Below, piece after piece: positions 789 through 31,218 of a stretch of 51,838 nucleotides of DNA. The first letter of the stretch is position 1; every line of letters begins with the position of its first letter. Source of the stretch: an uncultured Alphaproteobacteria bacterium (GTDB lineage: Bacteria > Pseudomonadota > Alphaproteobacteria > RF32 > CAG-239); contig CALXUQ010000004.1 in the NCBI GenBank assembly GCA_944391725.1, positions 1-51,838 on the forward strand, given 5' to 3'. Below the pieces are notes generated by a model. It saw nothing but the letters and a program-made list of their open reading frames with translations, was not told the DNA's origin and did no database searches. Made by a program: the position numbers and the translations under genes.

Positions 789-925
789 AAATTTGCACTC
801 GGGAGAGCCGAGTGCGGAGTGTCACAACTCCTTATACAGAAAGAAAGCTCCTTGAATGGGGAGCGGCCGGAATAAGTGTGCCTTGTGCATAACGAAGAAG
901 GTCGACTGTTTCTGTGTACAGTTTG

Positions 926-1194
926 GCCCCTAAATCCCCCTTAAAAATATATTTTAGTTTAGCTAGAAAAAGATAGATGCGAGCAAAATGGTGTAGCGGA
1001 TAGTTCTTCATATCTGCAAAGCATTTTACGAAGCAGATGCTTTTTATAGCTAAATCCGTAGGACAAGCCTCCAATCATCATCCTACTTGCCATTTTTCTT
1101 GGTGTTAGCAATAAGTAGCACCTGCGAAAAATGCCTGCGTATTATAATGATTGGGCGGCTTGCTAAAATATGTCTTTAAGGGAGATTTAGGGGC
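926..1194. mobile_element. 269-nt MITE-like or invertible segment with 32-nt terminal inverted repeats
   Basis: 926-957 versus the reverse complement of 1163-1194 match at 29/32; segment absent from the paralogous leader at ~29870; no convincing ORF. Confidence 0.6.
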
Positions 1195-1201
1195 ATCCTC
1201 C

Positions 1202-1233
1202 CCGCCTTAGGAAAGCTAGGGCGGTTTCTTTTT
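1202..1233 (+). terminator. Leader terminator upstream of the HTH gene (copy 1)
   Basis: CCGCCTTAG-GAAAG-CTAGGGCGG followed by TTTCTTTTT. Confidence 0.7.
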
Positions 1234-1263
1234 GAAGTAGAAACCTAAAGGGAGTTTAGAGCT

Positions 1264-1545
1264 ATGGGACGTTATAGTAAACGAATTAAATCTTGGCAGG
1301 AATGCCGCAAAGAAATTGGCGAAAAAATTAAGGAAATGCGCTTAGAGTTGGATTTATCGCCCGAAACCGCCGCCGAAATACTGCATACCGGCACCAATCA
1401 CTTGCTTTACTTGGAAGATGGATATCTAAAAAATATGCAAATCTCCACCCTCCACGCACTAGCTTATAAATATAATTATAAGTTAAAGATAAGCTTTGAG
1501 AAAAAGAATGAGAAAAAAATAGTCATCCCTCGACTACGAAAGTAG
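1264..1545 (+). CDS. XRE/Cro-C1 family helix-turn-helix protein (copy 1)
   Basis: IGEKIKEMRLELDLSPETAAEIL...LLYLEDG...ISTLHALA pattern; GGGAG RBS; near-identical paralogue at 29939. Confidence 0.8.
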   Translation: MGRYSKRIKSWQECRKEIGEKIKEMRLELDLSPETAAEILHTGTNHLLYLEDGYLKNMQISTLHALAYKYNYKLKISFEKKNEKKIVIPRLRK

Positions 1546-1990
1546 TCGTCCAGGGATCTTCCGATTAGTATTAACAAATTCGAAGACCCCTTGATGGTTA
1601 CTGACGTAACCAAGTGGTGACATATTTATATTGTATTAAAATTATCATAAGCCAGCATAATGATAGCATCGCGGATACAGGGCACATACGCTAAGCAGCT
1701 AACCAGCCGCGGCCCGTCGCACGGGTCATCCCTCGATTGCATTAGCAATATTTAAAGTCATCCCTCGTTTTTCGGAGAAAAACGTCAAACCAAAAGGGTC
1801 ATCCCTCGACTACGATAGTAGTCGTCAAGGGATCTACCGATTAATATTAACAAATTCGAAGGCCCCTTGATGGTTACTGACGTAACCAAGGGGTGACATT
1901 ATATTTATTATCAACCCGCTCTACTGGTAGCATCGCGGCTTCAAGGCACATACGCTAAGCAGCTAACCTGCCGCGCACCCGTCGTACGGG
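1522..1990. repeat. Cluster of GTCATCCC-type palindromic (REP-like) repeats; two ~195-200 nt direct-repeat units (1522-1725, 1798-1990)
   Basis: GTCATCCCTCG at 1522, 1725, 1757 and 1798; units share GGGATCT...TTGATGGTTACTGACGTAACCAAG and TAGCATCGCGG...CCCGTCG(C/T)ACGGG. Confidence 0.85.
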
Positions 1991-28123: not shown

Positions 28124-29617
28124 TTAGTGATGAGCGATAACGTATCCGTTGTTGCCGTCAACAGCGGTGTTGGCATAACCAAAATCAATCGAGTTCATGG
28201 AATGGATTCTAAATAAGGTTTCGCCTTGTTCGACCTTGTCGCCGACCTTTTTGAGCAAGTCGAGTCCGGCTCCCGGATTTTGCGATGCTCCGGCCAAAAC
28301 CCCGATACGATTAATCCGTGTGTTATCAATACTTTCGACATATCCGCTTTCAGAAGCCACAATATCGCGGGTCAAATGCCCCAGTGTTGGTTGCGGAGCT
28401 TTGCCTTGAGCATGAATAATGCGGTTCATGCTTTCAAGAGCGCGACCGGAGTTAAGAATTTCTTTGGCCACAAAATAACCTTGCCCGCCCCGCAGTTTGG
28501 GGTCAAAGTCGATGATTCTTCCGGCCAAGAATAAAGATTTTTCGCGCAAATCTTGCGGAGCATCATCTTTGTTGCGCAACACTTTCATCACATCGCGAGC
28601 TTCGAGCACAGCGCCAATACCATTGCCGATTGGTTCGCTACCATCAGTGATAACCGCATCGACCTCGATTCCCATTTGGTCGCCGACATATTCGATTAGT
28701 TTTCTAAGCCGCATGGCATCTTGAGTAGTTTTAATGCGTGAGTTTGGACCAACCGGAATATCAATCACGAGGTGAGTGATACCCATTGCAATTTTAATGG
28801 CGAGGATTGAAGAAATCAGATGTTGCTGTTGAGTAATGCCGATTTGCCGTTCAACAGAAGATATAAGACGGTTGGCCACGGCAATTTGCAAGCCGCTATG
28901 GCAGACCAAAGCACCACGATTTTCGGCAATCAGCTTTTTGAGTTGGGTTTCATCAAGGTCGACGTTGGCAAGCACACTCATAGTATCGGCCACACCGGCG
29001 CAAGAACTAAGCGAGCGCGAGGCGGTCTTGGGAATGGGCAGACCATAGGCCGATACAATTGCCGTAATAATAATGTCGGTTTTATTACCGGGGATACCGC
29101 CCAAGCAGTGATGATCGACCACAATCCCCTCATTATCCCAACTGATAGTTTGGTTGCCGACTAAAGATTCGGTCATTGCCAAGACCTCGGGCGGGGTCAT
29201 AAACGAACCGGATGCAACTAAGAAAGCGGCAATATCCATATTAGAATAGCGCCGATTGGTGATATCGGTAATAATGGCTTGGTATTCGTTGGGGCTTAAG
29301 ATATTTCCGGCAATTTTGCGTTTGATTGAAGAAACACTGGGCGGAGGTGGTGTAAGTGCCAAGGTAATGTTTGCGCCTTCAGGTAAGTTAATTTGTTCAA
29401 AAGCCTCGGTGTTAAGTGCGAGCTGATCAGGGCTGACTATAGATTCGTCATCAACAATGTTAAGGAAGGCATAGATAGGCTTGGCGCCTCCATGAATTTC
29501 TACTTTGGTCATAAATTTGATATCATCAAGCTTATAGGCCACGCAGTCTTTATGCAGATATGCAACATTTTCATTAAAAGAAGTGATAGGTAAATGTTTT
29601 AATGTCAGCATCGCCAT
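28124..29617 (-). CDS. Thymidine/AMP phosphorylase family protein (long N-terminal type), divergent active site
   Basis: HCLGGIPGNKT, PKTASR, TDGSEPIGNGIG..LEARDV, GLDLLKKVGD.V..GE.LF.IH. Confidence 0.85.
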   Translation of the reverse strand: MAMLTLKHLPITSFNENVAYLHKDCVAYKLDDIKFMTKVEIHGGAKPIYAFLNIVDDESIVSPDQLALNTEAFEQINLPEGANITLALTPPPPSVSSIKRKIAGNILSPNEYQAIITDITNRRYSNMDIAAFLVASGSFMTPPEVLAMTESLVGNQTISWDNEGIVVDHHCLGGIPGNKTDIIITAIVSAYGLPIPKTASRSLSSCAGVADTMSVLANVDLDETQLKKLIAENRGALVCHSGLQIAVANRLISSVERQIGITQQQHLISSILAIKIAMGITHLVIDIPVGPNSRIKTTQDAMRLRKLIEYVGDQMGIEVDAVITDGSEPIGNGIGAVLEARDVMKVLRNKDDAPQDLREKSLFLAGRIIDFDPKLRGGQGYFVAKEILNSGRALESMNRIIHAQGKAPQPTLGHLTRDIVASESGYVESIDNTRINRIGVLAGASQNPGAGLDLLKKVGDKVEQGETLFRIHSMNSIDFGYANTAVDGNNGYVIAHH

Positions 29618-29706
29618 TCCCAAAGATTAATCATAGTGTTAGAAATATCATATTTTTATTTATGATTAGTTAATGCGGAAGAGAGGCAAGGGGTAATAAA
29701 ATCCGC

Positions 29707-29734
29707 TTGCAAATTCTGCGAGATTAGATAGACT
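29707..29734 (+). promoter_or_regulatory. Putative sigma70-type promoter of cassette copy 2
   Basis: TTGCAA-N16-TAGACT, same arrangement as 761-788. Confidence 0.6.
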
Positions 29735-29740
29735 AGACTT

Positions 29741-29909
29741 GCACTCGGGTGAGCCGGGTGCGGAGTGTCACAACTCCTTAACTAGAAAAGAACAACTCCT
29801 TGAATGGGGAGCGATCGGAATAAGTGTGCCTTGCGCATAACGAAGAAGGTCGACTGACATATGCAGTTGCTAACTCCCCGCCTTAGGAATGCTAGGGCGG
29901 TTTCTTTTT
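29741..29909 (+). ncRNA. Structured leader RNA, C4/CI-antisense-like, copy 2 (uninterrupted)
   Basis: Hairpins 29741-29761 and 29762-29777; cloverleaf GGGGAG(29806-11)/CTCCCC(29874-79) with two arms; terminator 29878-29909. Confidence 0.62.
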
Positions 29910-29938
29910 AACTAGAAACCTAAAGGGAGTTTAGAGCT

Positions 29939-30205
29939 ATGGGACATCATCGTAACCGTATTAAATCTTGGCAGGAATGCCGCAAAGAAATTGGCGAAAA
30001 AATTAAGGAAATGCGCTTAGAGTTGGCTTTATCGCCCGAAAATGCCGCCGAAATACTGCATACCGGCACCAATCACTTGCTTTACTTAGAAGATGGATAT
30101 CTAAAAAATATGCAAATCTCCACCCTCCACGCACTAGCTTATAAATATAATTATAAGTTACAGATAAGCTTTGAGAAAAAAATAGTTCAGCCAGCACATA
30201 GATAG
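29939..30205 (+). CDS. XRE/Cro-C1 family helix-turn-helix protein (copy 2)
   Basis: Only three amino-acid differences from 1264-1545 across the core (D/A, T/N, K/Q); termini differ. Confidence 0.8.
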   Translation: MGHHRNRIKSWQECRKEIGEKIKEMRLELALSPENAAEILHTGTNHLLYLEDGYLKNMQISTLHALAYKYNYKLQISFEKKIVQPAHR

Positions 30206-30316
30206 CATCGCGGATATAGGGCACATACGTCAAGCAACTAACCTGCCGCGCCCAGCCGTGCTGGCCTCAGGCGCTGCTTGCGCGCACCCGTCGCACGGGC
30301 GCACCAGCCGTGCTGG
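30203..30316. repeat. 3' structured repeat shared with 1664-1725 and 1928-1990, plus two CCAGCCGTGCTGG palindromes
   Basis: TAGCATCGCGG...GGCACATACG...CTAACCTGCCGCG...CCCGTCGCACGGG; CCAGCCGTGCTGG at 30252 and 30304. Confidence 0.8.
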
Positions 30317-30336
30317 CTCTCAAAGGAGGCCTTATA

Positions 30337-31218
30337 TTATTTTTGTTCAATTGCCAGAGTAGTAATTTTAGGTTTGGTATGAGTAAGAATACTAATCACT
30401 TTCACCAACTCATTTTTGAGTTCCTGACGTGTCACCACAATATCGACCATCCCGTGTTCTTTGAGATATTCGGCGCGTTGGAACCCTTCGGGCAATTTTT
30501 CGCGAATGGTCTGCTCAATCACGCGAGCTCCGGCAAAGCCGATAACACAACCTTTTTCGGCAATATGGACATCGCCAAGCATAGCAAAAGAGGCCGAAAC
30601 ACCACCGGTTGTCGGGTCAGTCAAAATGGAGATGAAAGGCAAGCCTTTTTCCTTAACCATATTGATAGCCGCGGTTGTGCGTGCCATTTGCATTAGAGAT
30701 AAGATACCTTCCTGCATTCTTGCTCCGCCGGATGCTGCCACAGTAATCAGCGGATAATTACCTTTGCAAGCAATTTCAGCTGCTTTAACGATTCCCTCGC
30801 CCACAGCAGTACCCATCGAACCACCCATAAAAGAGAAGTCCATCGCGGCTACTACACAATTAATTCCGCCGATTTCGCCTTGAGCCACTTTGATAGCATC
30901 ATCATTACCGGTCGCTTTGCGATAAGCCCGCAACCGATCGGTATATTTTTTGGAGTCTTTGAAGTTGAGTGGATCTTCCTTAGTTTTAGGAAGTGTAACT
31001 TCATTATATTCTCCGTTATCAAACAGCATTTTGAGGCGTTTATCAATATACAAACGCAAGTGATGTCCGCATTTAGTGCAAACATAGCTGCTTTTTTTGA
31101 GCTCTTTGGAGAACAACATCTGCCCACAATTAGGACACTTAGTCCAGAGGTTGTCGGCAATTTCTTTAGGAGTAGTTTTTTTAACTTTCGGTCGAACGAA
31201 ATCTGTAAGCCAATTCAT
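30337..31218 (-). CDS. accD: Acetyl-CoA carboxylase carboxyltransferase beta subunit
   Basis: LWTKCPNC...CTKCGHH zinc finger, FMGGSMG, SGGARMQEG, PTTGGVSAS, GFAGARVIEQT. Confidence 0.97.
   Translation of the reverse strand: MNWLTDFVRPKVKKTTPKEIADNLWTKCPNCGQMLFSKELKKSSYVCTKCGHHLRLYIDKRLKMLFDNGEYNEVTLPKTKEDPLNFKDSKKYTDRLRAYRKATGNDDAIKVAQGEIGGINCVVAAMDFSFMGGSMGTAVGEGIVKAAEIACKGNYPLITVAASGGARMQEGILSLMQMARTTAAINMVKEKGLPFISILTDPTTGGVSASFAMLGDVHIAEKGCVIGFAGARVIEQTIREKLPEGFQRAEYLKEHGMVDIVVTRQELKNELVKVISILTHTKPKITTLAIEQK

Follow-up and report, generated by a model that had tools for sequence, protein, structure and literature searches.

The question raised by this locus is why an RNA whose relatives carry two pairs of mutually complementary segments should have lost both of them. 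The stretch of DNA analysed here (the window, 51,838 nucleotides of contig CALXUQ010000004.1 from an uncultured alphaproteobacterium) contains two copies of a small cassette, each consisting of a promoter-like element, an RNA of ca 165 nt with an intrinsic terminator, and a gene for an XRE-type helix-turn-helix (HTH) protein of 80–90 amino acids. In copy 2, the variable segments in the 3′ part of the RNA do not match those in its 5′ part. Judging by alleles found at the same locus elsewhere, copy 2 is a gene-conversion chimera, in which a tract of ca 34 nt (29769–29802) with the address elements a1 and b1 and the loop of hairpin P3 has been replaced. The wider reading that we favour, and consider probable by a modest measure, is that copy 2 is a recombinant of a large, hitherto undescribed self-addressed RNA family resembling the C4 RNA of phages P1 and P7, in which the address would provide each cassette with private negative feedback on its HTH gene.

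An earlier note on the window had pointed out the mismatch between the copy 2 motifs and the upstream segments of the same copy, and a reading of the window confirms this together with all the sequences and coordinates given. The segment TTAACTAGAAA is found at 29778–29788 and again at 29908–29918, CATACGTCA at 30224–30232, AGCAACT at 30233–30239, and TTAGCAA at 1105–1111, inside the insert of copy 1. Aligned with each other, copies 1 and 2 differ by this 271-bp insert and in the variable segments. The loop of copy 1 reads TTTCTGTGTA, and its joiner is broken by the insert (TTGG...CATC). Copy 2 begins with its first hairpin at 29741 and ends directly upstream of the start codon (ATG at 29939).

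The genome to which the window belongs (labelled G000 below) is a metagenome-assembled genome (MAG) of 1.57 Mb in 78 contigs. Ten close copies of the cassette were found in it by BLAST, three of which share the same insert, and a covariance model, R1, adds seven copies of a second subfamily. Every copy has the same order of parts, namely TTGCAA-N16-TA(A/G)(A/G)CT, the structured RNA, the intrinsic terminator, a short hairpin, a Shine-Dalgarno sequence, and an open reading frame (ORF) of 77–93 amino acids. The earlier proposal of constant scaffolds with exchangeable codes holds for these copies, as the stems are nearly invariant while two complementary pairs of segments vary and covary.

The structure of the RNA was evaluated with 19 uninterrupted copies from three species. 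For the stems P1–P5 and the terminator, 99.7% of the cells are paired, compared to 91.2% when shuffled and 35–45% when slid, and changes on both sides are seen at 15 structure pairs. These include 4 of 5 outer and 3 of 5 inner pairs of the P4 arm; the terminator, with its stem at 29878–29900 and a T-run to 29909, has 4 pairs of this kind. The 3′ domain is 74–77 nt long and is built as a closing stem around two hairpins, with element b′ forming the complete loop of the second hairpin and element a′ the joiner. The closing stem, GGGGAG/CTCCCC, is complete (6 of 6 pairs) in 92 of 94 RNAs and occurs in the compensatory forms AGGGAG/CTCCCT, TGGGAG/CTCCCA, GAGGAG/CTCCTC and AAGGAG/CTCCTT, and in the second subfamily as GGTGGAG/CTCCACC. 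Hairpin P3 keeps at least 5 of its 6 pairs in 93 of the 94. Since P3 and the closing stem use one and the same strand, they are mutually exclusive, and judging by these counts both are under selection. A leader peptide starting from an ATG inside P3 was also considered and rejected: its stop codon and length vary between copies, and the substitutions preserve the RNA stems.

Two further helices can form between the 5′ part of the RNA and this domain. In 18 of the 19 copies, element a1 (P2 loop positions 2–6) is paired with the joiner a′, and in 17 of the 19 the single-stranded segment b1 is paired with all of the P5 loop b′, the pairing ending exactly at the loop boundaries. The helices are 5–7 bp (a1:a′) and 6–10 bp (b1:b′) long, and their sequences vary from copy to copy. 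For the 24 copies that could be parsed in three genomes, the mean helix is 7.75 bp for cognate and 4.82 bp for non-cognate combinations, a result reached by 0 of 100000 permutations. A broader set of 60 distinct RNAs from many genera comprises 16 P2 loops and 40 P5 loops. Five or more Watson-Crick pairs are present for a1:a′ in 57 of these RNAs, and 6 bp or more for b1:b′ likewise in 57 (0 of 20000 permutations reach the observed pairing, also with one row per code).

The cassette RNAs carry a pairing code. Complementarity tabulated all versus all exceeds that of permuted controls, and a loop complementary to AACTAGAAA, as predicted in the earlier note, was found: it is TTCTAGTTA, the complement of TAACTAGAA, in copies c8 and c9 of the window's genome and in copy G006_f of a sister species. 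The suspicion that no such loop exists and that the matches do not rise above controls is thus contradicted on both counts. In c8 and c9 the insert disrupts the RNA, and the loop does not match the b1 of the same copy, whereas G006_f is intact and self-matched. Within the window's genome, the loops of c8 and c9 are the only ones to which b1 of copy 2 is complementary.

Copy 2 is the outlier of the family. The helix between its own segment and loop has 2 bp and an energy of +1.5 kcal/mol, the worst value among the 24 parsed copies; it gives the sole unpaired cells of the helix between P2 loop and joiner among the 19 uninterrupted copies, to which it is the one exception mentioned above; and it is the only one of the 60 RNAs that fails both pairings (2 bp + 2 bp). 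The tail of its b1 segment (…GAAAAGAACAA) accompanies a type-B arm in every other copy, but copy 2 has a type-A arm (1 of 19), a mixture suggestive of a crossover at P3 or close to it.

The alleles at the same locus were compared using contigs from four studies, which are short unitigs interrupted within the repeats. Apart from a few single-nucleotide polymorphisms in the flank, the differences of the X5 and X6 contigs that have the unique left flank cluster at 29769–29802. Their allele reads GTAGCA in the P2 loop and TCATATGAAAGTATAG in b1, which are the exact partners of the TGCTAA and ACATATG of copy 2. From 29803 on, no differences are listed for these contigs, and one X6 contig spans 29832–29920 without any. 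The presence of a matched allele at this locus in two other studies (X5 and X6) indicates that the matched form is ancestral and that the window allele arose by replacement of the ca 34 nt from another cassette. A b1 cognate to the P5 loop of copy 2 (CATATG) is also found in a sister-species copy, G006_a. In the window's genome, neither half of copy 2 finds a partner in another copy that fits in both modules. Unitigs of X1 match the chimeric junction with 0 differences (29450–29781 and 29752–29845); X1 is perhaps the source sample, in which case this support is not independent. In X9, another sample, compared over window positions 29450–29901, the upstream flank of copy 1 leads into the matched version of the copy 2 RNA (GTAGCA, TCATATG...). 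RNA modules therefore move between loci, and strains differ in whole modules at orthologous loci. None of the runs listed for the stretch is recorded as RNA, and the DNA runs containing it are animal-gut metagenomes. The features of the locus are collected in Table 1.

Table 1. Positions in the window of the parts of copy 2, of copy 1 and of an adjoining repeat.
Feature	Position	Strand	Basis or remark
Cassette copy 1	795–1545	+	RNA 795–1263 split by the 271-bp insert (925–1195); HTH gene 1264–1545
Promoter-like element	29707–29734	+	TTGCAA (29707–29712), 16-nt spacer, TAGACT (29729–29734)
P1, 5′ hairpin, 8 bp with 5-nt loop	29741–29761	+	Fold; 99.3% of cells paired, compensatory change (19 copies)
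P2 hairpin	29762–29777	+	Stem invariant; loop 29767–29772 (GTCACA) is address element a1
Tract replaced by gene conversion	29769–29802	+	Same-locus contigs of X5 and X6 differ here
Single-stranded segment with b1 (core TAACTAGAA, 29779–29787)	29778–29795	+	Complement of the P5 loop in other copies
P3 hairpin (CTCCTT/GGGGAG)	29796–29811	+	3′ strand 29806–29811 doubles as 5′ strand of the closing stem
P4 arm, first hairpin of the 3′ domain, type A with inner hairpin	29812–29852	+	Covariation
P5 hairpin, ACTG-ACATATG-CAGT	29853–29867	+	Loop 29857–29863 (ACATATG) is address element b′
Joiner ("bulge") TGCTAA, address element a′	29868–29873	+	Cognate P2 loop GTAGCA in G004 copies
Closing-stem 3′ strand (CTCCCC, 29874–29879) with overlapping intrinsic terminator	29874–29909	+	Terminator scan, covariation
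Post-terminator hairpin GGTTTC...GAAACC	29899–29920	+	Kept in all close copies; holds the second TTAACTAGAAA
Shine-Dalgarno AAAGGGAG and HTH gene	29922–29929; 29939–30205	+	88-amino-acid XRE-type HTH protein
Dispersed repeat unrelated to the cassette	30196–30335	+	17 BLAST hits on 11 contigs; holds CATACGTCA/AGCAACT

As to what the address may do, the mechanism that we favour is the following. The C4-like 3′ domain would recognise only those 5′ domains that carry its own code, whether these belong to its own molecule or to further transcripts of that cassette. This recognition would shift the switch between P3 and the closing stem and in this way set the amount of HTH protein made by read-through of the terminator, which would result in private negative feedback for each cassette. 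Codes would stay unique within a genome, such that cross-talk is avoided, and copy 2 would be uncoupled from the control by its address, being either unregulated or heading to decay.

The distribution of the codes bears on this mechanism. The model R1 gives more than 840 matches. They fall in 107 of the 151 genomes representing this bacterial family and in 19 of its 23 genera, often with at least 24 matches per genome; of 150 genomes belonging to other families in the class, 2 have matches. Some cassettes form tandem arrays, in which two to four RNA units follow each other at intervals of ca 247 nt. Every unit has a promoter, a terminator and a different double code, and in these arrays (L074 at G053:C2:66898-67900, L072 and L062) the HTH gene follows the last unit only. 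As the units have their own promoters and terminators, the RNA counts as an independent gene. For the 49 self-matched copies of six genomes, the a code is common to 43 pairs and the b code to 19, but 0 pairs have both in common, with 3.83 expected (P 0.005). The codes of genome G059 are factorial, combining two a-codes with three b-codes. Both thresholds are passed by 2 of 240, 2 of 182, 2 of 72 and 0 of 156 non-cognate pairs. The lack of duplicate double codes suggests that the RNAs meet in trans.

The analogy with C4, which the earlier note had already drawn, stands at the level of architecture, as the cassette agrees with the a1, b1 and C4 RNA annotated in phage P1 and with the Rfam structures. 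Both the cassette and the P1/P7 C4 locus (RF01695 and RF03163, clan CL00128) comprise a promoter, a hairpin, an a1-loop hairpin, single-stranded b1, ca 65 nt, and a domain of ca 77 nt, and the order in the P1 record is promoter, a1, b1, the 77-nt C4 RNA, a2, b2 and icd. In the Rfam structures, a1 sits in the loop of the second upstream hairpin with b1 directly after it, and within C4 itself, which RNase P matures from a precursor, b′ occupies the second loop and a′ the joiner. The 3′ domain of the cassette (29806–29879, 74 nt), when folded alone, gives a C4-like plan, and copy c4 and the segment 29806–29882 fold in this way too. In both systems the address has two parts, of ca 7 + 8 nt, that vary between related elements; the heteroimmunity of P1 and P7 is described in a review.

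There are also clear differences to C4. The closing stem of the cassette has 6–7 bp and runs into the intrinsic terminator, whereas that of C4 has 17 bp and is followed by ACC. The gene after the RNA encodes an XRE HTH protein in the cassette and is icd/ant in P1. In addition, the cassette is chromosomal and present in many copies (at least 24 in some genomes) with no adjoining phage genes, and its hosts are uncultured gut Alphaproteobacteria, unlike the phage-borne C4.

It is important to point out that a number of observations weigh against a C4-like private feedback. The RNA of the cassette, its ends and any processing are predictions from the DNA sequence. The C4 model of Rfam gives no match in the window at the gathering score, nor in 29600–30350 at E up to 10, while as a positive control the C4 of P1 itself scores 68.8 bits in that model; the c4-a1b1 model of Rfam likewise has no match to the cassette at E up to 10, the layout and complementarity nevertheless being present in 57 of 60 RNAs. 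The likeness to C4 is architectural and could be convergent. Across 51 copies, no code-specific a2/b2 sites near the ribosome-binding site were found in the downstream 100 nt. The pairing with this downstream sequence is 5.65 bp for cognate and 5.76 bp for non-cognate loops, and 4.53 and 4.82 bp, respectively, for joiners, with 17027 and 19968 of 20000 permutations reaching the observed values. The route from pairing to HTH expression is therefore conjecture. Both halves of the address lie on one RNA, and their covariation is thus explained equally well by an intramolecular double pseudoknot. In copy 2 the promoter, stems, terminator and ORF have all stayed intact, and its mismatch may be tolerated. 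Finally, the duplicate-code test omitted the 7 second-subfamily copies of the window's genome, and the lack of duplicates could partly be an assembly effect, since identical repeats collapse or break contigs in short-read MAGs; several cassettes are indeed located at contig ends.

The alternative that survives best is that the pairing is purely intramolecular, a possibility that we take seriously but regard as rather unlikely. Here, two pseudoknot helices would lock the fold, the diversity of codes would be the outcome of recombination and compensated drift, and copy 2 would be a misfolding RNA in decay. The partners are indeed always on the same RNA, ca 80–110 nt apart and in an antiparallel nested order, no downstream or external cognate target was found, and there are RNA-only tandem units that do not have anything downstream to regulate. 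However, the paired segments are the most variable ones in an RNA that otherwise is 85–95% identical, while compensated drift predicts the opposite. Moreover, no two self-matched copies of one genome coincide in both codes, although coincidence in a single code is frequent, with factorial sets as in G059, and a loop of 7–10 nt paired along its full length would presumably be sterically strained in a closed fold.

Another option considered was that like RNAs assemble into dimers or oligomers, with the 5′ domain of one molecule bound to the 3′ domain of the next and the codes preventing a mixing of paralogues, and that the HTH protein is co-expressed with the RNA without being its target. Each RNA bears both halves of its own code, the RNA is an independent gene in the tandem arrays, the double codes are unique within genomes, and the pairing stops at the loop boundaries as in loop-mediated contacts, all of which would fit. 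We nevertheless judge this scenario improbable. The intramolecular partner is kinetically favoured, and the linkage to the HTH gene together with the terminator and the ribosome-site context point to gene control. An ORF matching the HTH profile lies downstream of 40 of the 53 RNAs with enough flank, and 8 of the 53 have no ORF of 60–120 amino acids there.

Two further alternatives concern copy 2 only. Its mismatch could be an assembly chimera, with halves of two cassettes joined in a short-read MAG of 78 contigs that has about 17 similar cassettes, some of them breaking contigs. We consider this very improbable: the junction shares only ca 18–21 nt, the arm has a base unique to copy 2 (CGATCGG), the X1 unitigs have 0 differences, and the 3′ half with the unique base is joined to the flank of the locus in one 442-nt contig of X5. 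Hardly any credence can be given to the version of the earlier note, in which the loop and joiner of copy 2 would be guides for CATACGTCA/AGCAACT 3′ of the HTH gene and for TTAGCAA in the copy 1 insert, because the complementarity of 8/9 and 7/7 at adjacent sites (30224–30239) falls in the core of an unrelated dispersed repeat with 17 copies, mostly away from cassettes, the parts stand in reverse order to a1–b1 and thus do not allow the colinear pairing of the family geometry, complements of the 9-mer with at most one mismatch are at chance level (8 in the window, 10.15 expected), and the native cognate for loop and joiner is present at the same locus in other strains.

The suggestion that the TTAACTAGAAA after the terminator is a second target does not hold either, as it is the 3′ arm and loop of a hairpin that involves the U-tract of the terminator and is conserved whatever the code. 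In distant copies this hairpin becomes GTTTTG...CAAAA.

Going beyond copy 2, one can speculate that the family constitutes an orthogonal library of RNA–RNA addresses, a generalisation that we put forward tentatively and place somewhat below an even chance. Each of up to two dozen paralogues in a 1.5-Mb genome would recognise its own code only, through an AND gate of 5–7 + 6–10 bp, acting as private antisense feedback or in homo-oligomers; short gene conversions would reshuffle the codes, and selection would remove mismatched and duplicated ones. If this is true, the upstream a1/b1 sites, which are only "putative" in the P1 annotation, would be the primary functional partner of a C4-type RNA, and the 16 a-loops and 40 b-loops would be by far the richest natural evidence for such functional upstream sites. 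It would also mean that a major RNA family is absent from Rfam 15, and that the C4 and a1/b1 logic of phage immunity exists as chromosomal regulatory modules in multiple copies as well. The codes would provide a ready set of short orthogonal RNA–RNA pairs, for which copy 2 and its matched allele make a natural "broken" control. The cassette accounts for a recurrent intergenic repeat in MAGs of gut Alphaproteobacteria, where it also fragments assemblies.

Searches for known relatives gave little. An Rfam scan of the window returned only tRNAs, and on the cassette three sub-threshold, snoRNA-like chance matches. Two exact patterns of 20–22 nt, covering both arm types, gave 0 hits each in viral contigs, where no model- or HTH-based search was made. 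In the portions of the literature on C4-like multi-copy RNAs that were accessible, only the P1/P7 C4, RNase P and Rfam motif surveys were found (PMC2864571, PMC12197685, PMC4919922).

The proteins of the family, on the other hand, are readily placed. A profile search with 25 members gives HTH_25 in 14, HTH_31 in 10, HTH_37 in 6, and HTH_19 and HTH_3 in 4 each, and the family profile matches structures of the DdrO, C.BclI, SinR and HigA types with E down to 1.5e-6, whereas the copy 2 protein searched singly has an HTH match below threshold. In a large protein database, the cassette HTH proteins make up 54 clusters. The 3′ end of the copy 2 gene has been supplanted by the dispersed repeat, giving a product of 88 instead of 81–82 amino acids. 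This repeat, with the core TAGCATCGCGG...GGCACATACGCCAAGCAACTAAC, is also found at window positions 1662–1714 and 1928–1976 and as a triple tandem on contig C14.

Several known systems share some of the features of the cassette. The P4 CI immunity RNA is cut from a transcript with complementary sequences on both sides and acts on the nascent transcripts of its own operon, where targets flanking the RNA trigger premature termination of a long operon. Compared to this, the cassette has an upstream partner only, and its unit ends after one small gene. In the Sib/Ibs systems of E. coli, which are multi-copy type I toxin-antitoxins, paralogous antisense RNAs separate their targets by short variable domains. 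As in the cassette, there are near-identical paralogues in a genome, and short variable segments keep the pairs orthogonal; however, the Sib RNAs are opposite-strand to a membrane toxin gene, whereas the cassette places both partners on a single strand and in a single RNA and encodes an HTH protein. Type III toxin-antitoxins (ToxIN) consist of a promoter, structured RNA repeats, a terminator and a protein gene. The gene order is the same as in the cassette, the terminator would set the RNA-to-protein ratio, and tandem RNA units occur in some genomes, but the ToxIN protein is an endoribonuclease, while the cassette encodes an XRE HTH protein of 80–90 amino acids and has units of ca 250 nt, each with its own promoter. 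A bridge RNA of the IS110 type was rejected, as there is no recombinase-sized ORF next to any of 16 copies and the only linked gene is that for the HTH protein of ca 85 amino acids.

The promoter-like TTGCAA-N16 element is located at a fixed distance from the start of the RNA in all copies and scores below a strict consensus scan; its role as a promoter is inferred from the conservation. Copy 1 lies between GyrB and an ORF without a Pfam match, and copy 2 between a nucleoside phosphorylase gene and accD. For 15 of 16 cassettes in G000, the next downstream ORF of at least 100 amino acids is convergent (on the opposite strand), corresponding to tail-to-tail intergenic sites, and therefore the cassette drives no further gene.

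The second subfamily is distinguished by 7-nt a-codes, by the strand GGTGGAG shared by P3 and the closing stem, and by a different HTH protein (MIIKEF...). Its loci in G000 are C12:33856-33969, C18:26533-26645, C15:11954-12062, C30:4704-4816, C42:3096-3200, C34:17131-17238 and C36:12373-12483. The a element is self-matched in 7 of these 7 copies, and b has at least 7 bp in 6 of 7.

The 271-bp insert has terminal inverted repeats of 19 nt (CCCCTAAATCCCCCTTAAA) and always interrupts the joiner that links P5 to the closing stem, with the consequence that every copy of it destroys a′. In addition to the one in copy 1, it is found in G000 at C26:3732-4000, C26:23272-23348 and C68:1-56, and in two sister-species cassettes. 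Both orientations occur, one in copy 1 and the other in c8 and c9. Either a site-specific mini-element or an invertible segment would be conceivable; a genome-wide miniature inverted-repeat transposable element was rejected, as the insert occurs inside cassettes only.

Finally, five cassettes carry another type of repeat after the HTH stop codon, consisting of paired long hairpins (GTCATCCCTCG...CGTCCAGGGATC and GACCCCTTGA...GGGGTGACA). It is located at window positions 1505–1640 and downstream of c3, c4, c6 and c10, and has 35 BLAST hits in the genome.

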